This document shows positions 22,374 through 60,187 of a stretch of DNA of 64,000 nt, one piece after another. The position numbers and the translations under genes were made by a program. This stretch comes from a bacterium (GTDB taxonomy: Bacteria > UBA10199 > 2-02-FULL-44-16 > DYJF01). The stretch is taken from contig JBGSNL010000041.1 in assembly GCA_041739675.1 (NCBI GenBank), forward strand, positions 54 through 64,053, in the 5' to 3' direction. Position 1 is the first letter of the stretch. Every line of letters begins with the position of its first letter. Under the pieces are notes generated by a model, which saw only the letters and a program-made list of their open reading frames with translations, was not told where the DNA came from and made no database searches.

Positions 22374-22386
22374 ACCTCTTCAAATA

Positions 22387-25059: not shown

Positions 25060-25192
25060 CGAGCAGTCGCTAGGGGTGCGGCGCTGAGACCTTGCCGGAA
25101 GGCAAGGAACCCTGGAACCTGATCCGGATAATTCCGGCGTAGGGAAGCGAAAAAGAGATGAACCGCACCGCTCTTGCGTGCGGTTTTTTTAT
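25060..25192 (+). promoter_or_regulatory. TPP (THI-box) riboswitch with intrinsic terminator expression platform
   Basis: ctaggggtgcggcgctgagaccttgcc..gaaccctggaacctgatccggataattccggcgtagggaagcg matches the THI-element consensus. It is followed by an accgcac/gtgcggt hairpin plus a T7 run (25162-25190), 12 nt before thiS. Confidence 0.85.
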
Positions 25193-44415: not shown

Positions 44416-45239
44416 ATTTCTTCCACTACACCGCGTAGCACCTTGACGAGTTTCGGCTGGATCTTCGCCATCGCGCGCAAGACTTCTTCGTGATGCATTT
44501 CGCCCTTGTGGATGTCGGCTGCCGAATTGGCGATGCAATTGAACGTGAGAATTTTCATCTTCAAAAAGTTGCAGGCGATCACCTCGAAAACCGTGGACAT
44601 GCCGATGGCGTCCGCGCCCATCTGACGGTACGCCTTGATCTCAGCCTTCGTTTCATACGACGGCCCGGTGACCGCCATGTAGGTTCCAATCTTGAGATCG
44701 ATCCCCTCTTTTCTTGCGACCTTGAAAGCTATCTCGCGAAGGCCCGGATCGTAGGCGTCGGTCATCCCCGTGAACTGATCGGTCTTGCACTGGACCGCGA
44801 TTCCAATGAGAGGGTTCGTGCCCATCATATTTATATGATCTGAAACGACCATCATGTCGCCGGGTTTGAACGACGAATTGATCCCGCCTACCGCATTCGT
44901 CGTGACGACGGCTTTGACGCCGAGTTTTTCAAAGACGAAATACGGGAAGACGACAGCCTGCGGTGTGTGCCCTTCATAATAATGGTAGCGCCCCTGCATC
45001 ACCGCGAGCGGAATGTCCTTCCACTTTCCGAAAACGATCCTCCCCGCATGGCCCTCTACGTGCGTTTTTGGAAAATGGGGGATCTCGCTCGACATGAAGG
45101 TGCGCGCACCTTCCAGCCCCTGCACGAATTCGTCAAGGCCGCCGGTGAGCACCGTGAGAATTTTCGGCTGAATTGAAATCTGCTGCTTTAAAAAAGCGGC
45201 CGCCTCGTCAACCTGCGGAAAAAAAGTGTCGTAATCCAT
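44412..45239 (-). CDS. purine nucleoside phosphorylase (PNP/MTAP family)
   Basis: PNP family I fold (..VFPYFVFEKLGVKAVVTTNAVGG.., ..GMSTVFEV..). Confidence 0.8.
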   Translation of the reverse strand: MDYDTFFPQVDEAAAFLKQQISIQPKILTVLTGGLDEFVQGLEGARTFMSSEIPHFPKTHVEGHAGRIVFGKWKDIPLAVMQGRYHYYEGHTPQAVVFPYFVFEKLGVKAVVTTNAVGGINSSFKPGDMMVVSDHINMMGTNPLIGIAVQCKTDQFTGMTDAYDPGLREIAFKVARKEGIDLKIGTYMAVTGPSYETKAEIKAYRQMGADAIGMSTVFEVIACNFLKMKILTFNCIANSAADIHKGEMHHEEVLRAMAKIQPKLVKVLRGVVEEI

Positions 45240-45247
45240 TTATCCCC

Positions 45248-45886
45248 CTAACTTGCTATGGCGATTCCGGAGCTCGTGCCGATTCTTGAAGCGCCCGCCT
45301 CGATCATTGCAAGCGCCTGCTCTTTAGTTTTGATCCCACCGCTCGCCTTTATCTTGCAGCGGTTACCAACCGCGGCTCTGATAATTTTAACATCCTCAAC
45401 CGTTGCGCCGCGGCTTCCGAAACCGGTAGAGGTTTTCACATATGTCGCTCCCGCATCGGCCGCGATGAGAGACGCCTTCGTGATCTCTTCGGGCGTGAGA
45501 TAGCAAGTTTCGATTATCACCTTCACCGGCTTTCCCGCCGCCACGCGCACGACCTCTCTGATATCATCTTCCACGCGTTTGTAGTTGCCGCTCTTGAAAA
45601 AACCGATCGCCATCACCATGTCGATTTCGGTCGCGCCGTTTTTTATCGCCTCTTCAGTCTCTCTCACCTTGACCGCGATGGTCGTGGCGCCAAGCGGGAA
45701 GCCTACAACCGTGGCCAGCCCCACGCCGGACCCTTTCAAACGAGAGGCCGCTTGGGCCACAAAACATGGATTCACGCATACCGCAGCGAATTTATGCCTG
45801 GCCGCCTCGTCACACACTTTTTCAATATCGGAGAGCGCCGCATCCGCCTTGAGAATCGTATGGTCTATATATGATGCAAGGTCCAT
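45248..45886 (-). CDS. deoC: deoxyribose-phosphate aldolase
   Basis: Start at 45886 with AAGGAGG upstream. DeoC motifs (..AAVCVNP.., ..KASGGI..). Confidence 0.85.
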   Translation of the reverse strand: MDLASYIDHTILKADAALSDIEKVCDEAARHKFAAVCVNPCFVAQAASRLKGSGVGLATVVGFPLGATTIAVKVRETEEAIKNGATEIDMVMAIGFFKSGNYKRVEDDIREVVRVAAGKPVKVIIETCYLTPEEITKASLIAADAGATYVKTSTGFGSRGATVEDVKIIRAAVGNRCKIKASGGIKTKEQALAMIEAGASRIGTSSGIAIAS

Positions 45887-46083
45887 AAAAACCTCCTTAT
45901 ATTTCAAGAGCTTAGCCAATAAGAGACGGCCGACATTCATTCTTATTCCGCCCTGACGAAAAAGTGAACATTTTTTTCTTAGGGGACGCAACTTCGGGTA
46001 TCGGCCCAACCGATAATTAAGATGAGAGGGACGACAGAATAGATTGATAGTTTAAAACAGTTTTCTTACCCCCCCTTTTTGGG

Positions 46084-46117
46084 CCCTTCCACAATAGTGT
46101 GGGAGGGTCTTTTTTTA
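46084..46117 (+). terminator. orphan plus-strand intrinsic terminator (cccttccaca/tgtgggaggg + T7) with no annotated upstream plus-strand gene
   Basis: The hairpin is followed by tcttttttt. The upstream 200 bp is non-coding, so this may be a small-RNA 3' end. Confidence 0.4.
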
Positions 46118-46121
46118 TGTA

Positions 46122-46150
46122 TTGACCGCCTGAAAACCCTCCTTTATATC
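46122..46150 (+). promoter_or_regulatory. sigma70-like promoter (TTGACC-N17-TATATC) for the FHA-domain gene
   Basis: Correct spacing, and GGAGGA lies 9 nt before the ATG at 46179. Confidence 0.45.
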
Positions 46151-46178
46151 TACTGGCTACAATCGGAGGAGCAGACAA

Positions 46179-47144
46179 ATGGACGAGAAATCAGATAGCC
46201 TGGAATTCCCTATAAATCAGGAACTTTTGAGCGAGGCCACACACGTCAAGGAACAGTGGAAGCTCACGAAAGACCGCCTCCAGAAGATAGAAGAACACAG
46301 GGAAAAAGTGAGCCCGCCGGTCTATGACAGGGTCCTCTCTGACTACAGGGAAAAGCTGAAGGAAGTCACTGATGCGGTGCTGGAAAAAAAGCGCTCGATC
46401 GACCGCGAGCTCGTCTCCCTCTACGAAACGCAGAAAAAAATCGCCTCTCAGCTTGAAACTCACCGCCATGCGTTGGAAGAGATAAAGTTCAGAAACATCC
46501 TGGGCGAGTTCGCCGAAGAGGAATATCAGCGCAAGGCCAAAGAGGAGCAGGAAAAGATCAGCAAGTTTGAAACGGTATTGGCCGCGGTGAACACAAATAT
46601 CAGCAGATATGAGGACCTCTTCCGCGAGGAAGTGGATCTTTTCGCGGCGGGCGAACGGGTTCTCGAAGGTGAAGAAGAGGAGATCAGGCCGCGCACCTCC
46701 CAGGTTCTTGAAACGACCTCCGAGGAATTTTTAGGCGAGCTTGAAGGGCCGGATTATTTTTCCGCCCCCACCTCCGAGACAACAACGCCGGGCGAGGAAC
46801 ATTTCGAGACGTCTAAAACGCTCAAGGGAAAACCGGGCCGCGCTTCGGCAGGCGCTTCCCACCGCGCGCGCATAGTGATCATCAGCGGCGATGACGCCGG
46901 CGCAACATATCCCATCAAGGAAACGGTCTCGTTCGGGAGGGCGGAGGTCAACACCGTCGTGCTCCGCGACGCCAAGGTTTCAAGGCAGCACGCGAAGATC
47001 ATCCAGAAAGGCGAGGAGTTCGTCCTTCAGGATCTTCACAGCTCAAATGGAACCTACGTGAACGGCGAGCGCATCGACGAACACGTCCTGGCCAATAACG
47101 ACGAGTTCCAGATCGGCGACACGGTCCTTCAATTCCAGGCGTAG
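46179..47144 (+). CDS. FHA-domain protein with long N-terminal coiled coil
   Basis: C-terminal FHA motif (..GRA.EVNTVVLRDAKVSRQHAKI...NGTYVNGERI). Confidence 0.7.
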   Translation: MDEKSDSLEFPINQELLSEATHVKEQWKLTKDRLQKIEEHREKVSPPVYDRVLSDYREKLKEVTDAVLEKKRSIDRELVSLYETQKKIASQLETHRHALEEIKFRNILGEFAEEEYQRKAKEEQEKISKFETVLAAVNTNISRYEDLFREEVDLFAAGERVLEGEEEEIRPRTSQVLETTSEEFLGELEGPDYFSAPTSETTTPGEEHFETSKTLKGKPGRASAGASHRARIVIISGDDAGATYPIKETVSFGRAEVNTVVLRDAKVSRQHAKIIQKGEEFVLQDLHSSNGTYVNGERIDEHVLANNDEFQIGDTVLQFQA

Positions 47145-47211
47145 GCCCGGGGCAATTTTTCTAGCAACAAATTTTACGGCTCACCGATAAAAGCCTCAAA
47201 AGGAGTCTTTT

Positions 47212-48207
47212 ATGGATACATGCACGGTTCGCAGAATTGAAGGCAGCAACGGGGCTTATGATGTTCAAATCTGCCGTACGGACGATCTCCCGGTTCGGCA
47301 GAGCGAAAATGCCGACAGTTACACTTTGGCAGACAGCGGAGCGCCTCAGGGAGCGCAGCCGAGATTTATAAACCCCCTCGCCCCCGTCGACGAGTTTTCG
47401 GCCGACGCATATCTCTCAAGACTTGAAGAAGAGATGGAAAGCATCGATCAGGAAGAAAGAGAAACGTCGCTGCTGCAGTACGTGCAGTTTCTCGGAAATC
47501 TACCCTATGAAAAATCATTTGAGCGGCTGACAAACGTTGAGAGGCTCTTTCTCGATTCAAGCGATCAGGTCAGATTGAGCGCGGCGAGTTCGTTTATAAC
47601 TTTTAACACTGAGACGGCGGAAACCCTTGAATTGAATCACGCGCAACTGCCGGAGCTTATTAAGCGTGTCGACGACCACCGCACCGCGAAGCTTCTTCAA
47701 ACACTTGCCGAGAAAATAGGTCAATGCATCGAATCGCAAAACGACGAAGCCCCCGGGCAAATTGCAGCGGCCGATCTTGGACGGATGAGGCAACTCTTCG
47801 CCCATCCCGATCACTATGTCAGAGAGCTCGCCTTGCAGATGTATCTTGTGTCGGCGCAGTTCGCCGATCCGCAGGCGGGCGGTCAGGAGTTAAGGACGTT
47901 GCGCCGGGATTATATAGAAAGCACAAATCTTGAAATCCGCCGCGCGCAGGCCCACGCATATGGAGACGGCGCGGAGCTTCTTGATCTGAGGCAGACGTCC
48001 GAGGCGGAAGAGGCCTTCAGCGGGGACGAGTTTCCGATCGCGGCAAGGTTGAGCGCGGCCACGGCATATATAAGAATCTTCAGCCTTGCGGGCCGTCCGG
48101 CCGTTCGAGGTGAAAAGAGAGTTCTTCAAAACACGGCGCAGGATCTATCCGATCCCTCCGGCTTCGCGGCTTATGTCATCCTGAAACGACTCGATCTGCT
48201 ACGATAA
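47212..48207 (+). CDS. hypothetical helical-repeat protein
   Basis: 331 aa; no diagnostic motif recognised. Confidence 0.4.
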   Translation: MDTCTVRRIEGSNGAYDVQICRTDDLPVRQSENADSYTLADSGAPQGAQPRFINPLAPVDEFSADAYLSRLEEEMESIDQEERETSLLQYVQFLGNLPYEKSFERLTNVERLFLDSSDQVRLSAASSFITFNTETAETLELNHAQLPELIKRVDDHRTAKLLQTLAEKIGQCIESQNDEAPGQIAAADLGRMRQLFAHPDHYVRELALQMYLVSAQFADPQAGGQELRTLRRDYIESTNLEIRRAQAHAYGDGAELLDLRQTSEAEEAFSGDEFPIAARLSAATAYIRIFSLAGRPAVRGEKRVLQNTAQDLSDPSGFAAYVILKRLDLLR

Positions 48208-48237
48208 GTTTGACTAACCCCCACCGCGGGATTAGAG

Positions 48238-49602
48238 TTGGCCGGACAATTTCATAGGACTATGATGAGAAAAAAGAAGATCCTCCTGATTTCAGTGGCT
48301 CAAGGTTATACGAACGGACACAAAGCAAAGACAACGCCCTGCGCCGCTCTTGGAATTATCGCCGCCTACACCCCGTCACATTACGACGTGCAGCTCATAA
48401 ACGAACAGAACAAAGAAAGCGTGTATCGTGAAGACGTCGACCTGGTCGGTTTTTCAGCCATGACCTGTCAGATAAAAAGGGCCATAGAAGTTGCAAAGTT
48501 CTACAGGGCACGGGGCGTTCCAACGGTAATAGGCGGCATTCACGCCACAGTGAGACCTGAGGATGTTTGCGATCATTTTGATGCCGCGGTGATAGGCGAA
48601 GGCGATCTGGTATGGAAAAATATTCTCGCCGATTTTGAAAAAGGGGAATTACAAAAGATCTACAAATCCGACGTGCTCGTCGATATGGAAAATGTGCCCG
48701 CCTTCCGTCACGACCTTCTTTACAGGAAGAAAACAACCCTTTCACATGCGATCGTCCAGACTTCAAGAGGTTGTCCGCACAATTGTGAATTCTGTTCCGT
48801 TACAAATCTCTTCGGCAACCATTACCGAACCAGGCCGGTTAAAAATGTCATAAAGGAAGTTGGCGGTCTTAAACAAAAATTCATCTTTTTCATTGATGAC
48901 AACATCATGGGCAATCACGACTATGCCTATCCCCTGTTTGAACAATTAATACCGCTGAAAAAAGCGTGGGTGGGCCAGGCATCGCTTAATCTGTCGGTGA
49001 AAGATCTGCAGCTCTTGAAGCTGGCCAAGAAATCCGGCTGCCAGGGCCTTTTCATCGGCATTGAATCGGTGACCAAAGCAAATCCGTACTCAAAATTGGG
49101 CTCAGTCAATCTCAAGGAGATATCCAAGAAATTAAAAATCCTCCGCGATCACGGTCTTGTTGTAAATACATCCACCATATTCGGGTTCGATCACGATGAT
49201 AAATACTGTTTTGAAAAGACAGTTGAATTCTTGCTGAAAAACCGCGTTGCCATAGGCAATTTTCCCAACCTCACCCCGTATCCGGGCTCGGCACTTTTTG
49301 CCCGTTTTGAAAAAGAAGGGCGAATGCTTCATTATGACTGGGAAAAATACAACAACCACCACCCGACCTTCAAATTGAAAAATCTCACTTCGGAAGAGCT
49401 TATAGCAGGCGGCTATTGGAGCTCTTATTATTTCTACAAAACCGGTAATATACTTAAACGTCTGCCCGCCAACCTGCGCAATATTTTCAAGTATTCTTAT
49501 ATGAATTACCAATACAATCGGATCTCCAGATTGCATAAGAACAAGGCCCACATCGTCAAAATGCCTCCCGCCATGCTAAAAAAATGGCTGAAACAGTTTT
49601 AG
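48238..49602 (+). CDS. B12-binding domain radical SAM protein
   Basis: N-terminal cobalamin-binding-like domain and a CPHNCEFC radical-SAM cluster. Lower GC. The start may be 48262 or 48265. Confidence 0.7.
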   Translation: MAGQFHRTMMRKKKILLISVAQGYTNGHKAKTTPCAALGIIAAYTPSHYDVQLINEQNKESVYREDVDLVGFSAMTCQIKRAIEVAKFYRARGVPTVIGGIHATVRPEDVCDHFDAAVIGEGDLVWKNILADFEKGELQKIYKSDVLVDMENVPAFRHDLLYRKKTTLSHAIVQTSRGCPHNCEFCSVTNLFGNHYRTRPVKNVIKEVGGLKQKFIFFIDDNIMGNHDYAYPLFEQLIPLKKAWVGQASLNLSVKDLQLLKLAKKSGCQGLFIGIESVTKANPYSKLGSVNLKEISKKLKILRDHGLVVNTSTIFGFDHDDKYCFEKTVEFLLKNRVAIGNFPNLTPYPGSALFARFEKEGRMLHYDWEKYNNHHPTFKLKNLTSEELIAGGYWSSYYFYKTGNILKRLPANLRNIFKYSYMNYQYNRISRLHKNKAHIVKMPPAMLKKWLKQF

Positions 49603-49784
49603 TCAGGAACAGTTTTAAATTCTCGGTCACAGAGCGTGAAACGGCAACCTGATGATCCTGCCGTCGACCGCGAAGACTCCCCTTCCCAGATGATGGATCG
49701 TTTTCGCGCGCTTCTTTGATGGCGCGATCCACGCGCGGAAAGGATTTTTTCTTCATGGCGGTCCCCTTCTTCATTTAACTTGGT

Positions 49785-50447
49785 TCAAGGCAACAGTTCG
49801 ACCTTACCCGTATCGAGATCGTAATAGGCACCGATGACGGACAATTTTCCCTTCTTTACGAGATGCGAGAGGATGGGGTCCGAATCTTTGAGCGCTTTGA
49901 CCGCCCGCTCGACGTTGATATGGGAGGCCCTCTCGACAAGGTCGCATCCCCTGCTGCACTTCCTGGCTTCCGCGACCGCGGGAGCAATTGCATCCACGAT
50001 GCTCGCGATATGCCCCGGCGCCTCGCCTCCCTTTACAGCCTCGGTCACAGCGCCACAGCGCTTGTGGCCCATGACGACTACAAGCGGAACGTCAAAGTGC
50101 TCGGCGGCATATTCGACGGAACCGATATTCACGTCGTTCAAGACGTTTCCCGCCACGCGAACGACAAAGAGATCGCCCAGTCCCTGATCGAATATTATCT
50201 CGGGCGGGACGCGGGAGTCGGAACATGAAACTACGATCGCGCCCGGATGCTGCGACAAGGCGACGTCTTTCATGCGCTCCGCCCCCTGCCGCGGATGAGC
50301 CAGCTCTCCGCCCGTATATCGCGAATTGCCGGCCATGAGCGAGTCAAGGTTACGCTTCGCCTTCGCGTTCATATCCTTGGCGGAAGCCGTGAACGAAAAC
50401 ACAAGTAAACACGCGAGAGCGACTGTGAAAGTGCCGAAAGTTTTTTT
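49785..50447 (-). CDS. beta-class carbonic anhydrase, secreted
   Basis: Signal peptide MKKTFGTFTVALACLLVFSFTASA; zinc ligands CSDSR...HKRCG. Confidence 0.8.
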   Translation of the reverse strand, partial: KKTFGTFTVALACLLVFSFTASAKDMNAKAKRNLDSLMAGNSRYTGGELAHPRQGAERMKDVALSQHPGAIVVSCSDSRVPPEIIFDQGLGDLFVVRVAGNVLNDVNIGSVEYAAEHFDVPLVVVMGHKRCGAVTEAVKGGEAPGHIASIVDAIAPAVAEARKCSRGCDLVERASHINVERAVKALKDSDPILSHLVKKGKLSVIGAYYDLDTGKVELLP

Positions 50448-50576
50448 CATTTTTTCCCCCATTTCTTTCTTCGCTTCTAGAAAATCGGGCAACTTAAATC
50501 AAGCTATTGATAAAAAACGGTTATGATTATGATTAAAATCGCCGCCCGCCCTGCACCCATTTTCCGCAAAGCGATT

Positions 50577-50650
50577 TAGTTGTAATAATCATAAATAGTA
50601 GTTGTAATATAGTTGTAATAATCATATAATAACGTTGTAATTAGGTTGTT
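50577..50650. promoter_or_regulatory. iterated GTTGTAAT boxes (5 copies, two as longer AGTTGTAATAATCATA units) in the AT-rich promoter region of the HTH-ATPase-STAS gene
   Basis: tagttgtaataatcataaatagtagttgtaatatagttgtaataatcatataataacgttgtaattaggttgttATG. Confidence 0.5.
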
Positions 50651-51682
50651 ATGGAATCACTTAAAACATTGATATTAAATGAGTTTAAGAAACGGAAACG
50701 GCTTAAAACGGCCGATTTGGCACGGGTGTATAATGTGACCTATCAAGCCATACAAAAGCATCTATCCGCTTTGGCAAAAGAAGGTCGAATTCTGAAATTG
50801 GGAAGCTCTAAAAGAAACACCTATTATGTCCTCAACACGTCGCGGGCTCTTGGCCAGATTTTTAAGGGCGCAAGAAAGTTTACGAAGAGCATCAAGGCGG
50901 ATGGCGCAAACGAGAATGATTTGCTTCTGGAGTTGGCCATGCAAGCGGGGATTCTTAACGGACTGTCAAGAAACGCCAGAATAAATTTTGATTACGCGTT
51001 CACTGAAATGATCAACAATGCGATAGATCATTCCGGGACCCGCCTCATCGATGTTAACGTTGATATCAATGAAGGACTGGTTTCATTCTGTGTTTCAGAT
51101 ACGGGCGTGGGAATATTCCAAAACCTTTGTGAGAAGCGAAATCTAAAAACTGAAATGGAGGCAATTCAAGATCTTCTGAAGGGCAAACAGACAACAATGC
51201 CGGAAAGGCATACCGGTGAGGGTATATTCTTCACATCAAAAATAGCCGATCGTTTTGTCATCGAAAGTCATAACAAACGTTTGATAATAGATAACAGTAT
51301 AAACGACATATTCATAGAGGACATTCGCTTTAATCAGGGAACATCTGTTTTTTTCGAAATGAGATCGGGTTCGACTAAACAATTGGGAGAGCTTTTCAGC
51401 CAATTTACAAAGGAGAATTTCAAATTTGACAAGAGCCAGGTCAAAGTAAAAATGTTTGCGACCGGCGAGTTGTATATTTCACGTTCGCAGGCAAAGCGGC
51501 TTGTTCATGCATTGGACCAGTTTGCCGAGATAGTGCTGGATTTCAAAGATATTGATACAATTGGGCAAGCGTTCGCAGATGAGGTATTCAGGATCTTTCA
51601 GGCGGATCATCCGAATATAAAAATCACACCGATCAACTGTAACGAGAACGTCGAATTCATGATCAAAAGAGCGAAATCCTGA
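50651..51682 (+). CDS. fusion protein: N-terminal winged HTH + GHKL/HATPase_c-like ATPase + C-terminal STAS-like (DUF4325-like) domain
   Basis: wHTH (..LKTADLARVYNVTYQAIQKHLSALAKEGRI..), an N-box NAIDHS, a G1 box DTGVGI, and a roughly 100-aa STAS-like C-terminal tail. The gene is AT-rich. Confidence 0.55.
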   Translation: MESLKTLILNEFKKRKRLKTADLARVYNVTYQAIQKHLSALAKEGRILKLGSSKRNTYYVLNTSRALGQIFKGARKFTKSIKADGANENDLLLELAMQAGILNGLSRNARINFDYAFTEMINNAIDHSGTRLIDVNVDINEGLVSFCVSDTGVGIFQNLCEKRNLKTEMEAIQDLLKGKQTTMPERHTGEGIFFTSKIADRFVIESHNKRLIIDNSINDIFIEDIRFNQGTSVFFEMRSGSTKQLGELFSQFTKENFKFDKSQVKVKMFATGELYISRSQAKRLVHALDQFAEIVLDFKDIDTIGQAFADEVFRIFQADHPNIKITPINCNENVEFMIKRAKS

Positions 51683-51702
51683 TCACTATATGCCGCCGAA
51701 CA

Positions 51703-51803
51703 CCCCAAAACGCCTGCCATGTCCGAATGTTCGCCCGCCCTGGCCCATCGCTAAATGGCTAAAATTGGAGAATTGTTCAGCCATTGCTACGTTAGCGGTG
51801 GTT
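51703..51803. repeat. palindromic intergenic repeat, copy A (family with 53382-53403 and 54320-54400)
   Basis: ccccaaaacgcc...cgctaaatggctaaaattggagaattgttcagccattgctacgttagcggtggtt. An imperfect palindrome; it ends 13 nt before the catalase stop. Confidence 0.75.
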
Positions 51804-51815
51804 TCGCTTCCGCGA

Positions 51816-53270
51816 TCACTCGCCTTTCACGCCCTTGACGATGCGGCAGCCGGTCTCCTCATCGATGTTGCGCCAATATTCGAACGCGCGTTTCAGTACG
51901 GGCCCGGACACGCCGTTTTTCAAGTGCCCCACCACGTTTGAAACCAGCCGGCTGCGAGCCGCATCGTCCATGACCTTGCGCACGAGGGCGCCGGGTTGTC
52001 CGAAATCGTCGTCGTCTTTGCGCTTGGTGTAGGCAGCTCGGATGAAGTCGCCGCTGGCGTTCCAGATATCTGCCTGAGGATAGTGCTCCGAGTCGGGCTT
52101 GGGGCCGCCCTTTGAATTGGGCGCATAGACCGGATCGGAAGCGTGATCGATCCGCATCGTACCGCCCTTGCCATAGTTGTGCACCGGCACCTTCGGCCGG
52201 TTGACCGGGATCTGCTTGTAGTTGACCCCCAAGCGCGCACGGTGCGCGTCGGAGTAGGAAACAAGGCGGGCGAGCAGCATCTTGTCGGGGCTGGGACCGA
52301 TCCCCGGCACTAGGTTATTCGGCTCGAATGCAGCCTGCTCGATCTCGCTGTGAAAATCGCTTGGATTACGGTTCAGGGTGAGCCGGCCCACTTCATGCGG
52401 AGGGTAGTCGCCGTGGGGCCAGACCTTGGTCAGATCAAAGGGGTTGAAGCGGTAGGTCCTGGCATCTTCAAACGGCATTATTTGGACTTCCAATGTCCAG
52501 CTGGGATAATCCTCCTGTTTGATCGCCTCGCAAAGATCGCGGCGGTGGTAATCGGCATCAACTCCGGCGATCCGGTCGGCCTCCTCCTGCGTAAGAAATT
52601 CTATGCCTTGGTTAGTCTTGAAGTGGTATTTCACCCAAAAGCGTTCGCCTTTGGCATTGATCCACATGTAAGTATGGCTAGTGTAGCCGTTCATGTGCCG
52701 ATAGCTTTTGGGGACCCCGCGATCGCTCATCAGAATGGTGACTTGATGGGCCGTCTCGGGCGACAGGGTCCAGAAATCCCACTGCATGTCGTTGTCGCGA
52801 AGGCCGTTGTCCGCCCTGCGCTTCTGGGAGTGGATGAAGTGCTGAAACTTCATCGGATCGCGCACGAAAAAAACGGGCGTGTTATTTCCCACCATATCGT
52901 AGTTGCCTTCGGTGGTGTAGAACTTGAGTGCAAATCCGCGCACGTCACGCCATGTGTCGGGACTGCCGCCTTCACCGGCCACCGTGGAGAACCGGGCCAG
53001 CACATCGGTCTTCGTGCCCGGCTGGAACAGAGCCGCCTTGGTGTAGGCGCTGATGTTCTTGGTTACCTCGAAGTGGCCAAAGGCCCCGGAACCCTTTGCG
53101 TGGGGCTGGCGGTCGGGAATCATCTCTCTGTTGAAGTTGGCCATCTGCTCCAAGAGATAATGGTCGTGCAGCAGGATGGGGCCGTCGGGCCCGACGGTCA
53201 GCGAAAACTCATCGCTGGATACCGGGATCCCGGCATCGGTTGTCGTGAATTTGCGGTCGTCGTTTTTCAT
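51816..53270 (-). CDS. katA: monofunctional heme catalase
   Basis: 484 aa with catalase core motifs (..RERIPERVVHAKG-like [22 protein letters not shown].., ..RLFSYSDAHR-like [10 protein letters not shown]). Confidence 0.9.
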
Positions 53271-53381
53271 TGGGGTACCTCCTTTGAAAGCGATTGAAGC
53301 AGATTATCGGTCATGTTTACTCCTGTACGCACTCGATTGCAAGCGGAGGGAAAGTGGCATAAAGACAAGTGATGACGATGA

Positions 53382-53403
53382 TTCAGCCATTGCTCCGTTA
53401 CCC
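53382..53403. repeat. partial copy B of the palindromic repeat (20/20 identity with copy C half-site)
   Basis: ttcagccattgctccgttac; upstream of both catalase and the DJ-1 gene. Confidence 0.5.
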
Positions 53404-53504
53404 GCTAGTTCGGGGTTTACGCACCCATTTTTTCCGGTTGTTAAAAAATCATAAAATGTAGTAACGAAACGGGTGAACAACTTCCCGAGAAAAGACGGAT
53501 TGAT

Positions 53505-54275
53505 ATGCTGAAAAGATGCTTCATTTTATTGGCGGCCGCGGGTCTCTTTTCTTTGAATGCCCATGTCGTTTGGGCTGGGCAATCCGCAAAAGAGATCGGA
53601 AAGGACGATATGAAAAAGATATTGTTTGTGGTCACAAGCCACGCCGAGATGGGCAACACAGGGCTAAAAACCGGTTTTTACGTCCCCGAGCTCGCGCACC
53701 CGTACAATGTGCTGAGCAAAAAAGGATTTGCAATCGATATAGCGAGCCCCAAAGGGGGCGAGGCTCCGATAGACGGCATGGACCAGGCCGATGAGGCCAG
53801 CCGCGCATTTCTGAAGGAACATTCAAGGGAAATCCAGAACACCAAGAAGCTGAGCGATGTAAAGGCGTCGGACTACTCGGCCGTCTTGCTGGTCGGCGGC
53901 CACGGCACGATGTGGGATTTTCCGGACAACTCAAGTCTGGCAGGACTGATACGCTCGATATATGAAAACGGCGGAGTCGTGGCGGCAGTCTGCCATGGCC
54001 CTTCAGGGCTCGTGAACGTAAAACTCGCTGATGGGAAATATCTTGTGTCCGGCAAAAACGTGACCGGTTTTACAAACGGAGAAGAGAAGGAAATCAAACT
54101 CGATTCCGTGGTCCCCTTCCTTTTGGAGTCAAAACTCACTCAAGACGGGGCAAAGTTTAAGGGAGCCCCGAACTGGCAGGTCAATGTCGTTGTCGACAGG
54201 CGACTGGTCACGGGCCAGAATCCGGCATCTGCAGAGGAAGTGGGAACCGAAGTCGCAAAGCTTCTCTCACGATAG
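53505..54275 (+). CDS. DJ-1/PfpI (class I glutamine amidotransferase-like) family protein, secreted
   Basis: Signal peptide, a nucleophile elbow AAVCHGP, and similarity to Hsp31-like proteins. Confidence 0.7.
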   Translation: MLKRCFILLAAAGLFSLNAHVVWAGQSAKEIGKDDMKKILFVVTSHAEMGNTGLKTGFYVPELAHPYNVLSKKGFAIDIASPKGGEAPIDGMDQADEASRAFLKEHSREIQNTKKLSDVKASDYSAVLLVGGHGTMWDFPDNSSLAGLIRSIYENGGVVAAVCHGPSGLVNVKLADGKYLVSGKNVTGFTNGEEKEIKLDSVVPFLLESKLTQDGAKFKGAPNWQVNVVVDRRLVTGQNPASAEEVGTEVAKLLSR

Positions 54276-54319
54276 GAAGGCCGATCATTTCGCCCGTCGC
54301 CGCCGAAGGGCCTAAACCT

Positions 54320-54400
54320 CCCCAAAACGCCCGCCGTGCCCCCACCGCTAAATGGCTAACATTAGAGAATTATTCAGCCATTGCTCCGTTACGGGTGGTT
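54320..54400. repeat. palindromic intergenic repeat, copy C
   Basis: ccccaaaacgcccgccgtgcccccaccgctaaatggctaacattagagaattattcagccattgctccgttacgggtggtt. Confidence 0.75.
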
Positions 54401-54484
54401 CTTTTTTGCGCACAAAATTGGGAACCGCGCTGCCATTCTCGCCGAAATAATATAGTTAGCTCAGTTTTGCTGCGCTACTGATGG

Positions 54485-54558
54485 TTGAAACGCCTATTCG
54501 CTGCAAAGTGACATTCAATAATTTCAACTACTTATCTATATGGGGACTGTCCCCTTTA
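54485..54558. repeat. 74-bp REP-like direct repeat R1 ending in the palindrome ggggactgtcccc
   Basis: 71/74 identical to R2 (54813-54886). Confidence 0.85.
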
Positions 54559-54839
54559 AAGGGACCTGTCCCCGTGCTCCTCACTGGGCCGCGTGTGGCA
54601 GATACATTGAACTGAATCCCATCAGAGCAAACATCTGTAAACGGCCGGAAAAGTTTCCGTGGAGCAGCTATCATTATTATGCATCAGGCAAAGAAGATCC
54701 TTTGTTGCAACCGATCAAAGGAATGGCCGGCTGTGAAAAATGGGTGAAAGGCGTGGGAGCGCCTGATTATCGTAGTTTTATTCTGGAGGGGCTAAAAATG
54801 GACCAAAATGCCTTGAAACGCCTATTCTCTGCAAAGTGA
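54540..54839 (+). pseudogene. truncated IS200/RAYT-like (REP-associated tyrosine transposase) gene: C-terminal fragment only
   Basis: ..RAPHWAACGRYIELNPIRANICKRPEKFPWSSYHYY.. matches the Y1-transposase C-terminal region. The N-terminal HUH half is absent, and REP-like palindromes flank the fragment. Confidence 0.55.
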
Positions 54840-54886
54840 CATTCAATGATTTCAACTACTTATCTATACGGGGACTGTCCCCTTTA
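54813..54886. repeat. 74-bp REP-like direct repeat R2
   Basis: Lies 6 nt 3' of the stop of the minus-strand membrane-protein gene. Confidence 0.85.
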
Positions 54887-54891
54887 TCAGT

Positions 54892-55845
54892 TTACCGCAC
54901 GTCAAGCATGCGCCATAACGCATATAGTGAACTGTTGGCAGTAACAAGATCTATTCTCGTCCTCGCGGCACGTGGTTTCGGAGAGGCCGGGAGATAAACG
55001 GACATCTCACGGACTAAGGATGTTTTTGCTGGAACAATCTGGTCAATCAGAGAATCGTCTGCTCCAACGACGTGGCCAGCATCTTGCGCAGTGCTCGAGA
55101 GTATTGCCGAGACTGTCAACCATTCAGTCGTCGTATTATTTAGGGTTACCGAATATCTGACAAAATCCCCTTTGCGACCAACATACTCGAACTTCACGGG
55201 AAACTCACCCGGACCATAACTTTGACCGAGCAGCGAATTTGCAAATTTTTCAGCTCCCTGCCATCCATCGAGAGCCAGCAGATGGGCGCGATGCGCTCTC
55301 TCACCACTTATCATGTCCAACATCAATTCTGGGTGCCCCCCACTTGTAATAGTGTAGTAAAGTCCGTACAACGGAAATGCAAGAAAGACCAAAAGCGCTA
55401 GAATAATAACGGGCATCTGAGCTGGCGTTGGCGGAAGGTCTTCCGAACGTCTTTGGATCTTTCCTTTCGTCTCTCTTGAGATTAAGGAGACAATGTTATC
55501 GTTGTCAAAATCACCACCTTCAACAAGAACTACTGCATTCAGATCGTCAGTACCTGAGAGACGCTTAACTGTAAGAAGATTGTTGTCAACACTTAACTCA
55601 GGAATCGAACTCGCCAAGAGTGTGTATCTACGAGCAGGATCAAGCTCCAAAACTATATCTTTTTCCGATCTGACCCCACGATTGAAAATTGTTATTGTAA
55701 CTGTCTTTCCGCTGTCAGACAATGTTGAATACTGCAAGTACTTCGTAACAACATACAATCGTCGATGAAACCAGTAGTAGCCAAACAGAGCAACAATACC
55801 TGTCGAAACAACACCAATGAGGATCTGAAAGATGATCGTCATCAC
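54892..55845 (-). CDS. orphan membrane protein (N-terminal TM + central TM pair), hypothetical
   Basis: 317 aa with clearly lower GC. No recognisable domain. Confidence 0.45.
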   Translation of the reverse strand: MMTIIFQILIGVVSTGIVALFGYYWFHRRLYVVTKYLQYSTLSDSGKTVTITIFNRGVRSEKDIVLELDPARRYTLLASSIPELSVDNNLLTVKRLSGTDDLNAVVLVEGGDFDNDNIVSLISRETKGKIQRRSEDLPPTPAQMPVIILALLVFLAFPLYGLYYTITSGGHPELMLDMISGERAHRAHLLALDGWQGAEKFANSLLGQSYGPGEFPVKFEYVGRKGDFVRYSVTLNNTTTEWLTVSAILSSTAQDAGHVVGADDSLIDQIVPAKTSLVREMSVYLPASPKPRAARTRIDLVTANSSLYALWRMLDVR

Positions 55846-56017
55846 TTGACTCCGAAACAGCCATTAAACAGCTTTTAACCTAGCAAAACCAGAATAACAT
55901 TTGTGTTCCAATATCTACTCCCCTCCCCACCGCATTGCAAGATACTAGCTCAAAGCTCAAAGGTGAAAGGTCAAAGGAAGGCGGTGCGGGCCCGTGCGGG
56001 ACGGGGCTGCCAGCAAG

Positions 56018-56136
56018 GCCGATTGGCGAGGGACGATTACGACTATCGATTAACGATTAGCGATTTGACGATTATCGGTAATCATTAATCAGTAATCGAC
56101 AATCGTTAGTCGTAATCGATTATCGGTTAATCGGCT
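56018..56136. repeat. CGATTA/TAATCG-rich imperfect palindromic satellite, copy 1 (3' of the four-helix-bundle gene)
   Basis: gccgatt...aatcggc termini. The left half is CGATT-rich and the right half AATCG-rich. It shares the 3' block aatcgttagtcgtaatcgattatcggttaatcggct with copies 2 and 3. Confidence 0.8.
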
Positions 56137-56143
56137 TTAGAAG

Positions 56144-56476
56144 CTACGGCAGCAACCTAATTTCGCTATAGCTATGCAACACCGCTTCCTTGAATTCCGC
56201 TATTTCCAGTGGTTTGAAGAGGGAGAAAGAAGAGCAGAGATCAAGACAGGCGGAGACTTCCGCTAGTGAGCCAAGGGAAATCTGGAAGAAGCGCTTGCGC
56301 TCGGGAGTGCTGCGTTTGGCATTACCTTCAGCCAGATTCAGCACCGCCGACGTGAGTGCGCGCCTGAGCTGATCGGCCAGATTGCCATATCCCCGCGGCC
56401 AGCGGATCATCAGCCGCGCAATGCGTTCAGTAATCCCGACTAGGCGGTTGTAGCAATTGAGCTTTTCGTGGTTCAT
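56144..56476 (-). CDS. four-helix-bundle protein (TIGR02436-like)
   Basis: 110 aa (..ADQLRRALTSAVLNLAEGNAKRS..SLGSLAE..), typical of the family. Confidence 0.6.
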   Translation of the reverse strand: MNHEKLNCYNRLVGITERIARLMIRWPRGYGNLADQLRRALTSAVLNLAEGNAKRSTPERKRFFQISLGSLAEVSACLDLCSSFSLFKPLEIAEFKEAVLHSYSEIRLLP

Positions 56477-56594
56477 TTTTGCCCTCCTTTGTTTTGGTTG
56501 CCGTTTTCCGTCCTCTCACCCAAGGGAGGAGGACGAAAACGGCGACCAAACATGTGGAGGGCAACAGTGGCCACGAAAAGCGAAATTGCCGACA

Positions 56595-56712
56595 AGCCGA
56601 TTCGCGATGAACGATTACGACTATCGATGAACGATTGACGATTTGACGATCGATAATCGATGATCGGTAATCGCTAATCGTTAGTCGTAATCGATTATCG
56701 ATCAATCGGCTT
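56595..56712. repeat. CGATTA/TAATCG-rich palindromic satellite, copy 2 (3' of the ORF6N gene, overlapping its last codons)
   Basis: gccgattcgcgatgaacgattacgactatcgat...cgttagtcgtaatcgattatcgatcaatcggct. Confidence 0.8.
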
Positions 56713-57247
56713 TTCGCTCGCTTTTGTCCGCTACCGCAAACCCAATCTCCCTTTTCTTCGTTTCCGGCGGAATCATCATTTGCCTGATCGCATCGAATAG
56801 CGAGCAGATCGCTTTATCGTGGGTCGACAGTCTTTGCTCCAATTCGATAAGCTTTTGGGCCAGTTCCTTATGGGTTGCGAGCAATTCGCGGAGTTTGACA
56901 AAGGCGCGGACGACAAAAACGCTGGCTTCCACAGCACGCTCACTATTCAGGACATTCGCCGCCATTATGGCACCATGTTCGGTGAAGGCATAGGGTAACC
57001 ATGCGGAATACTTGATCTTTCTGAGGTGGTCACAATTTGTGACCACCTCGCCACGTTCACTCTCCGTCAGTTGAAACATAAAATCAGGGGGGAAACGGGC
57101 TATATTACGTCGAACAGCCTGATTCAGAGCCTTCGTTGTAACCCCATAGAGAGCAGCAAGGTCCGCATCGACGATAACCTTTTGTCCCCGAATCAGCAAA
57201 ATGCAGCTTTCGGCTCTTTCAATGGGAATGAGAGATCTTTCTTCCAT
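56702..57247 (-). CDS. ORF6N (KilA-N-like) domain protein
   Basis: ..IRGQKVIVDADLAALYGVTTKALNQAVRRNIARFPPDFMFQLT.. is a hallmark ORF6N N-terminus. Confidence 0.7.
   Translation of the reverse strand: MEERSLIPIERAESCILLIRGQKVIVDADLAALYGVTTKALNQAVRRNIARFPPDFMFQLTESERGEVVTNCDHLRKIKYSAWLPYAFTEHGAIMAANVLNSERAVEASVFVVRAFVKLRELLATHKELAQKLIELEQRLSTHDKAICSLFDAIRQMMIPPETKKREIGFAVADKSERKAD
57025..57049. promoter_or_regulatory. perfect 25-bp palindrome aggtggtcacaATTtgtgaccacct inside the ORF6N coding region
   Basis: 11-bp arms with a 3-nt spacer. A second, 7-8-bp-arm copy lies at 57278-57300. Confidence 0.5.
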
Positions 57248-57277
57248 AAGAACTCCGATCTAAATCGAGTTTATGAA

Positions 57278-57300
57278 CCGGTCACAATTTGTGACCACCT
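57278..57300. promoter_or_regulatory. palindrome ccggtcacaATTtgtgaccacct about 31 nt upstream of the ORF6N start codon: candidate operator
   Basis: Same core as 57025-57049. Located in the AT-rich promoter region. Confidence 0.45.
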
Positions 57301-57420
57301 TGACAATAGCAAGCGCTATGCCAATTTGCGGAATGTATAATTTATTGATTATTGGTGAGAATTTTTTGGAGTGGGTTTTAGGTAGTGCACGATTTTCGTG
57401 CAAGCTGCATGAAAACGCTG

Positions 57421-57486
57421 CAATCGATAATCGTCAAATCGTTAATCATTAATCGTTAGTCGTAATCGATTATCGGTTAATCGGCT
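57421..57486. repeat. CGATTA/TAATCG-rich satellite, copy 3 (short), ending 2 nt from the polA stop codon
   Basis: caatcgataatcgtcaaatcgttaatcattaatcgttagtcgtaatcgattatcggttaatcggct. Confidence 0.8.
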
Positions 57487-57487
57487 C

Positions 57488-60187
57488 TTAATGCGCTTCG
57501 GCCCAATTTGCGCCGATCCCGACATCGACGATGAGAGGAACATCGAGGGATACAACATTTTCCATCTTTGCTTTGACATATTCTCCAAGTTCTTTCGCCG
57601 CCTTTTCCGGAACTTCAAACAAAAGCTCATCGTGCACCTGCATTATCATCCTTGCATCCGGGAATTTCTTTGGCAGTTCATTATGTATCTCTACCATCGC
57701 CTTCTTTATGATGTCTGCGGCAGTTCCCTGGAATACCGCGTTGAAGGCCATCCGCTCCGTCATCTGCTTTACCATCGCATTCTGGCTCAGGATGTCTGGT
57801 ACATATCGCCGCCTTCCGAAAAGCGTTTCGATGAAACCCTTTTTTCGCGCTTTCTCCAGAATTTGATCGCGATATTTCGCCACCGCCGGATATCGTTCGA
57901 AATAGGAGTCGATATATTTTGCCGCCACCCCGACTTCGATCTTTAGCTGCTTTGAAAGTCCGAATGCGGTCTGCCCGTAGATCGTGGCGAAGTTTACAGT
58001 TTTTCCGACTGCTCGCTGTTCGTCGGTTACGTTTTCAGGTTTTACCCCAAAAATTCCCGCCGCCGTGATCCGGTGAACATCGTCTCCTCGTTTGAAGGCC
58101 TCAAGTAACGCTTCGTCGCGCGACAGGTGGGCCAGAACCCTAAGCTCGATCTGCGAATAATCGCCTGAGATCAGAACATTTCCCTTTTCCGCTATAAAGG
58201 CCTCGCGGATCCTTCCTCCCTCTTTCGAACGGACGGGAATATTTTGCAAATTGGGATCTGAAGACGAGAGCCTGCCGGTGGACGCCACAGCCTGGTTCAA
58301 AGAGGTATGGATCCTTCCTGTTTTTTTGTCCACAATCTCCCTGAGCGCATCGATGAAAGTGGATTTGAGTTTTGACAGCGAACGATACTCAAGGATCAAG
58401 GCAGGCAAGTGATGCTTGAGCGAGAGATCCTCTAAAATCCCCACATCGGTGGAATAGCCGGTCTTCGTGCGTCTGGGAGTTCCGAGCTTCAATTTGTCGA
58501 AGAGAATGACTCCAAGCTGGCGCGGAGAGTTTATATTGAACTCCTCTTTTGCCTCGCTGTGGATCCTTTTTTCAAGCTCGCCCAGTTTTTCCTCATACTC
58601 TCTGGAGAGTAACGCGAGTTTTTTCGTGTCGATTTTCATCCCCGCCTGCTCCATATCGAGAAGGACGACAAGGAGCGGCATCTCAAGATTGAAAAAAAGA
58701 TCGTCCAGTTTTTCTTCTTTGAGTTTCGGGACGAAGATATCGGCGAGCCTCAGCGCTACGTCGGCGTCTTCGCATGAATAATCGCGCGCGACGTCTATCG
58801 CCACCTCCGAAAAATTGAGCTGCTTCTTGCCCTTGCCCACGACTTCTTCGTACCTGATCGTCTTGTGGTCCAGATGCTGCTGCGCCAGCGCGTCCAGGCC
58901 GTGGCTGCCCGACGGGTTCAGAAGATAGGAGGCGATCATTGTGTCGCAGTAGAGGCCCGCCACATCGACGTCGTATCTTTTCAAAACCGCAAGATCGTAT
59001 TTCAGATTCTGCCCGATTTTTTTGATCTTTGGATCCGCAAGGATCGGCTCCAGTTCCTCTATGACCTCTGTGAGCGGCAGCTGGCCCTTGGCTAGTTTCG
59101 TCTGCGTCCCGAAAAGGTCGGGCGCTGCCTGCCCCGTGACGTGGCCCACAGGGATATAGAAGGCGATGCCCGGGGCCGTGGCCACCGAGATTCCCACGAT
59201 TTCGGCTACCATCACGTCTAGGGAGGTCGTTTCAAGATCGAAGGACACTTTTCCCGCGGATCTTATTTCGGCCGTCAGTTTTTTCAGCTCATCAAGGCTC
59301 TGGATGAGAAGATATTTCTCGCGCCCGAGGGTTTCCTTGGGCGATAGCTCGGAGAGGAGCCTGGTGAACTCGAACTCGCGGAAAAGATCGTGGAGTTTTT
59401 TGTCGTTTGGGGCCGTGACCGCAAAATCTTCAAAATTGTATTTGACCGGCACATCCGTCTTGATGGTCGCGAGCTCCCTTGAAAGCCGCGCCTTATCCAC
59501 GTCCTTTTCGATCCTTTCGGCCAACCCCTTTGAGAGCTCTTTTGCGTGTTCGATGACGCCTTCAACGGAGCCGTACTGGGCGATGAGCTTGGAGGCGGTG
59601 ACCATCCCGATGCCGGAAACGCCCGGGATATTGTCCGAGGCATCGCCGGCGAGACCCAGGACATCTATCACCTGCCTTGGTTTCACTCCGAACTGCGCCT
59701 CGACTTCTTTTTCGCCGATGCGGCGGTCCTTCATGGAGTCGAACATCTTCACGGAATCGCCCACGAGCTGCATGAGATCTTTGTCGCCCGAGACGATCAC
59801 AACTTCAAGTTCGTCCGAGGCGAGTTTTTTTGCCAGCGTGCCGATGATGTCGTCGGCCTCGAAGCCCGGCAACTCAAGCACGAAAATGCTCAGCGCTTCG
59901 AGGATCGGTTTGAAATACGGGAACTGCTGGACGAGATCGTCAGGCGGCGCGGTGCGGTTGGCCTTGTAGTCTTCGTACATCTCGTCTCTGAAAGTGGGCT
60001 CCGCGGTGTCGAAGACAACCGCGAGATGGTCCGGCTTTTCGTCGCGCATGAGTTTTAAGATCATCTGCGTGAAGCCGTAGAGCGCGTTTGTGGGAAAGCC
60101 CTTGGAATTGGACAGCGAACGGATCGCGTAATAGGCGCGAAAGACGTAATTGGCCCCGTCGATAAGATAGAGGGTCTTCTTGGCCAT
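57488..60187 (-). CDS. polA: DNA polymerase I
   Basis: 5'-nuclease, 3'-5' exonuclease and polymerase domains. Start at MAKKTLYLIDG. Confidence 0.9.
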   Translation of the reverse strand: MAKKTLYLIDGANYVFRAYYAIRSLSNSKGFPTNALYGFTQMILKLMRDEKPDHLAVVFDTAEPTFRDEMYEDYKANRTAPPDDLVQQFPYFKPILEALSIFVLELPGFEADDIIGTLAKKLASDELEVVIVSGDKDLMQLVGDSVKMFDSMKDRRIGEKEVEAQFGVKPRQVIDVLGLAGDASDNIPGVSGIGMVTASKLIAQYGSVEGVIEHAKELSKGLAERIEKDVDKARLSRELATIKTDVPVKYNFEDFAVTAPNDKKLHDLFREFEFTRLLSELSPKETLGREKYLLIQSLDELKKLTAEIRSAGKVSFDLETTSLDVMVAEIVGISVATAPGIAFYIPVGHVTGQAAPDLFGTQTKLAKGQLPLTEVIEELEPILADPKIKKIGQNLKYDLAVLKRYDVDVAGLYCDTMIASYLLNPSGSHGLDALAQQHLDHKTIRYEEVVGKGKKQLNFSEVAIDVARDYSCEDADVALRLADIFVPKLKEEKLDDLFFNLEMPLLVVLLDMEQAGMKIDTKKLALLSREYEEKLGELEKRIHSEAKEEFNINSPRQLGVILFDKLKLGTPRRTKTGYSTDVGILEDLSLKHHLPALILEYRSLSKLKSTFIDALREIVDKKTGRIHTSLNQAVASTGRLSSSDPNLQNIPVRSKEGGRIREAFIAEKGNVLISGDYSQIELRVLAHLSRDEALLEAFKRGDDVHRITAAGIFGVKPENVTDEQRAVGKTVNFATIYGQTAFGLSKQLKIEVGVAAKYIDSYFERYPAVAKYRDQILEKARKKGFIETLFGRRRYVPDILSQNAMVKQMTERMAFNAVFQGTAADIIKKAMVEIHNELPKKFPDARMIMQVHDELLFEVPEKAAKELGEYVKAKMENVVSLDVPLIVDVGIGANWAEAH

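Follow-up and report, generated by a model that had tools for sequence, protein, structure and literature searches.

What are the long palindromes that follow the small genes 3' of polA in a bacterium of the lineage UBA10199, and how did they come to lie there? The question arises from a 64-kb stretch of contig JBGSNL010000041.1 (assembly GCA_041739675.1, positions 54 to 64,053), hereafter the window, to which the satellite copy counts and recombinase scans given below apply. An earlier reading of the bare sequence (the original prediction) had seen there a cassette-like array, in which each accessory gene is followed by its own CGATT/AATCG-rich element, here called a satellite, and had compared this layout with integron cassettes. 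The present analysis suggests, with roughly even confidence, that the satellites form a narrow family of palindromes built from heptamer arrays, which mark the recombination joints of modules carrying an ORF6N gene and a four-helix-bundle (4HB) gene in a defence-type island and probably bring these joints about. RNA and DNA folding energies were calculated together with z-scores, and repeat periods were obtained with Tandem Repeats Finder (TRF).

Anatomy and folding of the satellites

The gene order on the minus strand was confirmed from the sequence, the open reading frames (ORFs) and Pfam to be as originally described: polA (57488-60187, 899 aa), a conserved anchor gene, is followed by satellite 3 (sat3, 57420-57487), the ORF6N gene (56702-57247), sat2 (56596-56711), the 4HB gene (56144-56476), sat1 (56018-56137) and the gene of a low-GC orphan membrane protein. 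Sat1 and sat2 are full palindromes, each consisting of a gene-proximal arm (A1, 56078-56137; A2, 56651-56711) and a distal arm (A1', 56018-56077; A2', 56596-56650), and sat3 is a half satellite that has only the gene-proximal arm, A3, the apex of which matches the distal arm of sat1. All three lie within 1.5 kb, no further copy being present in the 64 kb, and share an exact 25-mer (AATCGTTAGTCGTAATCGATTATCG) that occurs three times in the window with 0.00 expected, which confirms that related elements lie 3' of polA. This 25-mer contains a 10-bp dyad (TAATCGATTA) and is matched at 24/25 positions in L005, an ENA metagenome contig that is one of the related loci (numbered with the prefix L) used for comparison.

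About eight CGATTAN heptamers make up the degenerate array of each arm, and in a full copy this array continues into its inverse. TRF gave a period of 7, with 13.9 (sat1), 8.6 and 8.7 copies and 65-77% matches. All six arms align in a single register, GCCGATT-(CGATTNN)n, in which the CGATT core alone is kept; with degenerate period-7 arms of this type, the hairpin is a ladder of 5-bp CGATT/AATCG helices separated by small internal loops. The foot of the satellite is AAGCCGATT, and the palindrome runs on into the flanks for another 3-4 bp. On the gene strand, the proximal arm begins 0-8 nt past each stop codon: sat3 starts 2 nt past the polA stop, sat1 starts 6-8 nt past that of the 4HB gene, and the ORF6N stop sits within the foot of sat2 (..AAA GCC GAT TGA), the last codons being the palindrome foot.

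Sat1 and sat2 were predicted to form imperfect hairpins of 115-120 nt with 42-46 pairs on either strand (RNA folds of -51 to -59 kcal/mol). The z-scores were -7.7 and -7.5 for the two RNA strands and -7.1 for DNA in sat1, and -5.3, -5.8 and -5.2, respectively, in sat2. Sat3, a half copy, has no partner arm and no significant gene-strand fold (z +0.1); the statement that every satellite folds as a long hairpin holds for sat1 and sat2 only.

It is a minority possibility that the satellites are RNA-level elements, i.e. stem-loops in the 3' untranslated regions of polA, ORF6N and 4HB that stabilise the mRNA, or stop or insulate transcription without a U-tract, or, in a variant, RNase III sites at which a polycistronic ORF6N-4HB transcript is cut, like the 23S rRNA intervening sequence (IVS) stem around a 4HB ORF. 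Hairpins of the repetitive extragenic palindromic (REP) type are mRNA stabilisers. The position of the arms directly behind stop codons, the 42-46-pair hairpins (z -5 to -8) and the presence of a neighbouring leader hairpin, hp2, whose structure is conserved with covariation, would all fit a role in transcripts, and the 4HB ORFs of rRNA IVSs sit inside RNase III-processed stems (PMC4990558). However, the antisense strand folds as well or slightly better, and with no strand asymmetry the G-U pairs do not indicate that the transcript is under selection. The pairing comes from the repeated CGATT core and not from compensatory change, no hairpin is formed by sat3 or the L005 copy, which are half sites, and no satellite follows the 4HB gene of L006 (93% protein identity). 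A canonical intrinsic terminator was not detected at the satellites, nor was any T-run after their hairpins, the single consensus site in the region lying inside ORF6N.

Searches with exact 19-mers of the arms against 185,579 species-representative genomes and the JGI metagenomes returned only chance matches inside unrelated genes, indicating that the satellite family is rare. Arrays of three CGATTAN units were found in 20 IMG/VR viral contigs as plain tandem repeats, with no ORF6N or 4HB gene nearby. The satellite family is lineage-restricted and extragenic.

Arm relationships and possible history of the ORF6N-4HB block

The proximal arms A1, A2 and A3 are mutually 86-87% alike. The reverse complements of A1' and A2' match each other at 89%, against only 77-85% with the proximal arms (77-78% for their own partners). 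Since the distal arms resemble each other more than they resemble the proximal ones, sat1 and sat2 are copies of one imperfect palindrome, and, the two arm types being distinct sequences, this palindrome is imperfect at the same places in both full copies. Local inverted duplication, by which each satellite would have copied its own arm, was rejected on the same percentages. A1 and A3 have a common foot (GCCGATTAAC), as have A2 and the L005 arm (GCCGATTGAT); the exact stretch shared by A1 and A3 amounts to 35 nt, of which 25 nt are common to all three proximal arms.

Arms were also joined in silico and folded as chimeras. A3 with A1' gave -69.2 kcal/mol and a perfect 16-bp apex, and A2 with A1' gave -60.4 kcal/mol, compared with -49.9 and -50.8 kcal/mol for the real neighbours A1 with A1' and A2 with A2'. 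The poorest pair was A1 with A2' (-45.4 kcal/mol), the two arms that flank the leader hairpin and the 4HB gene. The outermost arms, A3 and A1', are thus the best hairpin partners.

The simplest history of the locus starts from a single A3.A1' hairpin 3' of polA. A block of 1346 nt would then have entered this hairpin at its apex and split it, bringing in the ORF6N promoter region, ORF6N, sat2, the leader hairpin, 4HB and A1. Recombination between A3 and A1 as direct repeats would excise this block and restore the single hairpin. Perfect identity over 25-35 nt is about the minimal length for RecA-type exchange, and the 35-nt and 25-nt identities of the arms make deletion and re-insertion of the block plausible. 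The arms would thus act as recombination joints by supplying such identity together with hairpin-prone, breakage-prone DNA, and no dedicated integrase would take part. The satellite hairpins would appear in transcripts as 3' stem-loops as well, probably as a consequence of this arrangement rather than as its function. A parallel may be seen in the insertion sequences (IS) IS1397 and ISKpn1, which insert into the loop of enterobacterial palindromic units. In both cases an extragenic palindrome has foreign DNA at its apex, but the block inserted here carries neither a transposase nor IS terminal inverted repeats.

Mis-threaded assembly is unlikely to have created this arrangement. An independent Logan unitig (k=31, SRR28170473) runs from A3 through ORF6N, sat2, hp2 and 4HB to the foot of A1 with 100% identity, and it ends exactly at the 35-mer common to A1 and A3. 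This end point, and the fact that A3 fits A1' better than A1 does, might be expected if the assembly had been threaded wrongly through the arms, the ORF6N-4HB block lying elsewhere or being tandem or circular, and polA being followed by a single hairpin. Such an artefact is extremely improbable: the 35-nt exact repeat is shorter than the reads and than the larger k values of metagenome assemblers, and an ORF6N remnant occupies the same place after polA in L014.

Turnover of the island in relatives

The satellites lie in a variable island (47145-57487) between polA and an FHA-deoC-PNP-hemC-hemD block (42885-47144). The polA relatives (76-81% identical) keep hemB-folC-spoIIE upstream of polA and the FHA-deoC-PNP-hemC-hemD block on the far side. 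Between these anchors, L013 (polA 77%) has 5.3 kb of other genes, and L014 (polA 76%) has 2 kb comprising the ORF6N remnant, directly 3' of polA, and HicAB; L015 (polA 81%) has an AAA_15 ATPase resembling AriA/GajA/Old, its contig ending before the far anchor. In the window, the same place is taken by 10.3 kb holding an unknown gene, a radical-SAM enzyme, a carbonic anhydrase, an HATPase-DUF4325 protein, a catalase, a DJ-1 gene, a transposase remnant, the orphan membrane protein, 4HB and ORF6N; outside the island, the Pfam assignments of the about 50 ORFs show housekeeping genes only (purine, thiamine and haem synthesis, Mla transport, etc.). With conserved flanks and differing content, the region is a turnover hotspot with defence-type cargo, as which the candidate defence family PDC-S05, the AriA/GajA/Old-like ATPase and a TIR-like protein were found in this island and related loci, together with the HicAB of L014. 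The suspicion of a modular stretch with gain and loss is thereby upheld, both genes and repeats differing between the polA relatives.

The CGATTA satellite was found in none of the polA relatives, each of which has a different repeat 0-3 nt past the polA stop: units of GTCATTGCGAG..GAAGCAATCCC in L015 and L016, CACCCTGAGCTTGTCGAAGGG and other heptamer arrays in L014, and a plain hairpin in L013. The REP-like GTCATTGCGAG...GAAGCAATCCC unit recurs beside heptamer arrays and 4HB or ORF6N genes in several unrelated contigs (L015 3668-3760; L016 3640-3722; L005 4940-4975 and 6264-6300; L007 5670-5830; L014 10325-10440; L032 about 1270-1390), among them one viral contig in which it abuts a (CGATTAA)n array.

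The ORF6N-4HB block itself was found in L005, 3' of Mrp/Nuo-type antiporter genes, in the order ORF6N upstream region, ORF6N, a half satellite (proximal arm only, A2' being absent), leader hairpin and 4HB. DNA identity to the window is 58% in the ORF6N coding sequence (CDS), 82% in the arm and 76% in the leader region (hp2), with 86-94% in 50-column windows over the leader and the 5' half of 4HB. This jump of identity in a mosaic alignment places a recombination breakpoint at the satellite, and the proximal arm belongs with the leader-4HB unit. Stronger constraint on the satellite than on the adjoining sequence was considered and rejected, the 4HB leader and 5' half being equally or more conserved. 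In L011 (4HB 74% identical in protein), a CGATTA-type array lies upstream of the leader and 4HB. Overall, module boundaries and the identity breakpoint coincide with satellites, the content of the island turns over, and the ORF6N-4HB block occurs elsewhere.

Several points weigh against recombination joints. The satellite is known from three loci (the window, L005 and L011), so that the history rests on few sequences, and its copy number and contexts are those of the 64-kb window. The split hairpin alone leaves the position of A1 beside A1' unexplained, and the inserted block must have ended in its own proximal arm. Neither an empty site nor a circle was observed as a product of recombination. 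The near-invariant 25-mer with its dyad could be a binding site under selection, and the RNA-level roles discussed above are the main rival. If the joints do work as proposed, modules of defence islands are shuffled without a dedicated recombinase, heptamer arrays of about 60 nt providing portable homology and fragile hairpins as a cheap alternative to integrons; this would also give a reason why such islands break metagenome assemblies.

Comparison with known repeat classes

Resemblance to attC sites and clusters of attC sites lacking integron integrases (CALIN arrays) lies in the imperfect palindrome, variable in length, behind a gene, in the conserved mismatches and in the modular gain and loss. 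Nevertheless, the integron reading did not pass any of the tests applied. The original prediction had already remarked that canonical GTTRRRY cores were not evident, and a motif scan of both strands confirmed this: neither GTTRRRY nor RYYYAAC occurs in the three satellites or within 15 nt around them. Likewise, no intI was found, nor any other recombinase (Phage_integrase or other), in a Pfam scan of the about 50 ORFs of the window. The genes are not promoterless cassettes each with its own attC, since ORF6N has its own upstream region of about 170 nt, conserved in four contexts; half sites occur, and the 4HB gene of L006 is not followed by a satellite. As a mechanism, the cassette analogy is therefore not sustained. 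Non-canonical integron-like cassettes, with the palindromes serving as attC and the recombinase encoded outside the window, are very improbable. The order of gene and palindrome, the variable length, the mismatches shared by both full copies, the module turnover in relatives and a first site past polA that is a half site, recalling a simple attI-like site, would agree with them. Besides the missing R' and R'' cores and recombinase, however, A3 shares about 60 nt of homology with the other arms, which would not be so at an attI x attC junction, the pairing of the best-matching arms points to the hairpin apex rather than its foot as the joint, and 4HB and ORF6N genes occur elsewhere without satellites.

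A second class to be considered is that of REP elements, including bacterial interspersed mosaic elements (BIMEs) and REPINs, and of MITEs (miniature inverted-repeat transposable elements), which might be moved in trans, for example, by a Y1 enzyme of the REP-associated tyrosine transposase (RAYT) type, a remnant of which lies 1.2 kb away. Like REP, BIME and REPIN sequences, the satellites are extragenic, repeated, hairpin-forming and located 3' of stop codons; an intact RAYT start also lies downstream of the 93%-identical 4HB gene of L006, and the arm is present in two other metagenome contigs. Still, an origin of this kind is quite unlikely. At 115-120 nt, the satellites are three to five times longer than REPs (about 20-40 nt), they are built of heptamers, and they have no GTAG-type head. 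No evidence of high copy number or RAYT flanking was obtained: three copies lie within 1.5 kb with none elsewhere in the window, the repeat on either side of the RAYT remnant is a different one of 74 nt, and the 19-mers of the arms are absent, chance matches apart, from the genomes and metagenomes searched. The suggestion of a new MITE family is not borne out either, as the whole element is a palindromic array without a unique internal sequence, its flanks show no direct target-site duplication, and there are no dispersed copies in the 64 kb.

A close resemblance is to heptameric repeats, the classic case of which is that of the cyanobacterial short tandemly repeated repetitive sequences (STRRs). 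Heptameric repeats are over-represented in bacterial intergenic DNA near the 3' end of the upstream ORF, the Xanthomonas repeats (GGGAATC) lying on average 28 nt from it (PMC4692102). The satellites also consist of tandem 7-nt units in intergenic DNA just 3' of the upstream ORF, and, as in those repeats, length and sequence vary between close relatives (PMC4692102). They differ from STRRs and Xanthomonas repeats in being degenerate, with only the CGATT core kept, in the joining of an array to its inverse and in the invariant 25-mer. The satellites are a degenerate, palindromised version of heptameric intergenic repeats with an invariant core.

Comparison with Rfam 15 gave only sub-threshold miRNA-hairpin noise for the satellites and hp2, with no family at gathering score, and neither tRNA nor tmRNA genes were found as an integration target.

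The ORF6N gene and its upstream region

The ORF6N protein (181 aa, minus strand) carries a KilA-N-like DNA-binding domain (PF10543, E 1.2e-27) and matches the PADLOC candidate defence family PDC-S05 (E 2.4e-52) and a PHROG anti-repressor. Its homologues number more than 7700 and lie for the most part on 1-3 kb contigs, as is typical of multi-copy DNA that breaks assemblies; in plasmid and phage collections only a short piece of ORF6N was matched. In L040-L042, an ORF6N gene with 84% identity lies 3' of urocanase and is flanked by direct repeats of about 150 nt, the stop codon being again at the junction.

The conserved upstream region (57248-57419, minus strand) contains the repeats D5 and I6 and has homologues in L005, L014 and L040-L042. 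A dyad, GGTCACAATTTGTGACC, is present in it at 57270-57305 and recurs in the ORF6N CDS at 57018-57053. In L014, ORF6N has been deleted exactly between the two dyad copies (L014 9990-10030). The GGTCACAAATTGTGACC dyad may be both an operator for autoregulation and a hotspot of deletion. The CDS copy of the GGTCACAAATTGTGACC dyad found in the ORF6N promoter region encodes ..VVTNCDH...

A DNA-binding domain next to the satellites raises the question of whether these are protein-binding arrays (iterons or operators), in which the CGATT cores or the block with the TAATCGATTA dyad would bind a regulator, such as ORF6N or the Avd-like 4HB protein. The 25-mer, invariant in the three copies, is kept at 24/25 in L005 despite 58% identity of the ORF6N CDS, and CGAT-core arrays lie beside 4HB genes at 52-74% protein identity (L007, L010, L011, L037-L039). 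A binding array is nonetheless improbable. A 7-bp period puts successive sites on different faces of the helix, and no extra constraint is needed to account for the arm, which at 82% is less conserved than its neighbours, the 4HB leader and 5' coding half (about 76-94%). The satellites are also dispensable in close homologues, and the promoter of ORF6N itself offers a better candidate operator (D5/I6).

The 4HB gene and its leader hairpin

The 4HB protein (110 aa, minus strand) belongs to the 23S rRNA intervening-sequence protein/Avd-like family (PF05635, E 1.9e-16; TIGR02436, E 4.8e-15), i.e. the ORF found in 23S rRNA IVSs; relatives of it were not found in IMG/VR. Upstream of the gene lies hp2 (56440-56600, minus strand, 161 nt), a leader hairpin of about 55 bp (-85.7 kcal/mol, z -10.4), in the predicted stem of which the Shine-Dalgarno sequence, the ATG and roughly the first eight codons of 4HB are enclosed. 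Across six loci whose 4HB proteins are 55-74% identical to that of the window, 27 consensus pairs were found, 10 of them with compensatory changes, and the loop GGGTGAGAGG is conserved. The counterparts are located at 5897-6003 in both L005 and L007, at 2897-3020 in L010, at 84-190 in L011 and at about 1400-1520 in L037 and L039. According to this model, the covarying hp2 hairpin would lock the 4HB start site. A switch by translational coupling between A2' and hp2 was considered and discarded, no complementarity being seen on inspection.

In L010, L037 and L039, the hp2 palindrome lies between two head-to-head 4HB genes, those of L010 being only 61% identical, and of the left-hand gene about 25 nt are left in the window. 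The head-to-head loci, too, have CGAT- or TCGG-core arrays behind the 4HB stop. Most close homologues of the 4HB and ORF6N proteins are found on contigs of about 1-3 kb, which suggests that both genes are generally flanked by repeats breaking short-read assemblies.

The 23S rRNA IVSs consist of a 4HB ORF within a stem that RNase III processes, and they are seen as selfish elements transferred horizontally (PMC4990558). In common with them, the window has a PF05635 ORF within a very stable stem-loop RNA, inverted-repeat flanks and a translation initiation that looks disabled or sequestered. Unlike them, the element lies between protein genes and not in an rRNA gene, no rRNA being detected in the window by Rfam, and its flanking arms, A2' and A1, are the poorest-matching pair. 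It is conceivable, but rather unlikely, that the unit of heptamer array, leader hairpin, 4HB and heptamer array is a free-living form of the selfish element called the 23S rRNA IVS, which would insert into hairpin apexes, either rRNA helices or extragenic palindromes; the arrays and the leader would then be recombination or RNase III sites, and 4HB would be translationally locked until the RNA is processed.

As a by-product of this analysis, hp2 may matter more than the satellites. The 4HB/Avd-like genes are widespread and uncharacterised, and a conserved, covarying hairpin over their ribosome-binding site, often shared by head-to-head pairs, links the free-standing copies to the structured rRNA IVSs and offers a testable handle on their expression.

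Other components of the island

Behind sat1 lies the low-GC orphan membrane protein (54892-55845, minus strand, 317 aa, GC 0.42-0.49), for which no Pfam match was found, with phrog_17621 matched at E 6e-13. This variable cargo is preceded by a recurring module (55905-55980, minus strand) that consists, on the gene strand, of four CCTTTGA heptamers, a dyad (CTTGCAATGCGG) and GGGGAGGGGAG-TAGATAT. Unrelated cargo is preceded by closely similar modules in L005 (two copies), L015 and L040-L042, and the module may be a portable promoter or operator for defence effectors. Versions with the dyad CCGCTTGCAATGCGG and GGGGAGGGGAGTAAATA are located at L005 6385-6470 and 6720-6800, L015 4025-4100 and L040 2270-2370, the cargo behind the module being a membrane orphan, a TIR-like protein, an AriA/GajA-like ATPase or a 226-aa protein.

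The RAYT-like remnant (54540-54839, plus strand) is the C-terminal part of a Y1 transposase. The assignment as a truncated RAYT is weakly supported by NCBIfam (REP_Tyr_transpos, E 0.0012), the match covering just the last 27 profile positions. The remnant is bracketed by two 74-nt direct repeats (54485-54558 and 54813-54886), 328 nt apart and the only two copies in the window, which had been described as REP-like. That description does not hold: they are direct repeats, the second one begins with sequence coding for the C-terminus of the RAYT remnant, and folding is limited to a small GGGGACnGTCCCC hairpin, with no significant fold in the second unit; hence they are not REP-like palindromes.

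Further along the island, a secreted DJ-1/PfpI-family gene (53505-54275, plus strand) lies inside a bracket (53378-54392) formed by a 24-nt direct repeat (53378-53401 and 54369-54392, 23/24 identical) with the core ATTCAGCCATTGCTCCGTTAC. An AT-rich tandem array (50576-50649; 33-nt and 11-nt periods, AGTTGTAATAA units) stands directly upstream of the HATPase-DUF4325 gene (50651). Two unrelated palindromes were found elsewhere in the window, one just 3' of dciA (4127-4217, 40-nt arms, 90% complementary) and the other at 22314-22380 (32-nt arms). The only Rfam hit in the window is a thiamine pyrophosphate (TPP) riboswitch (25062-25162, plus strand, 69 bits), located, as is ordinary, upstream of thiG, a ThiH-like radical-SAM/BATS gene and thiC.

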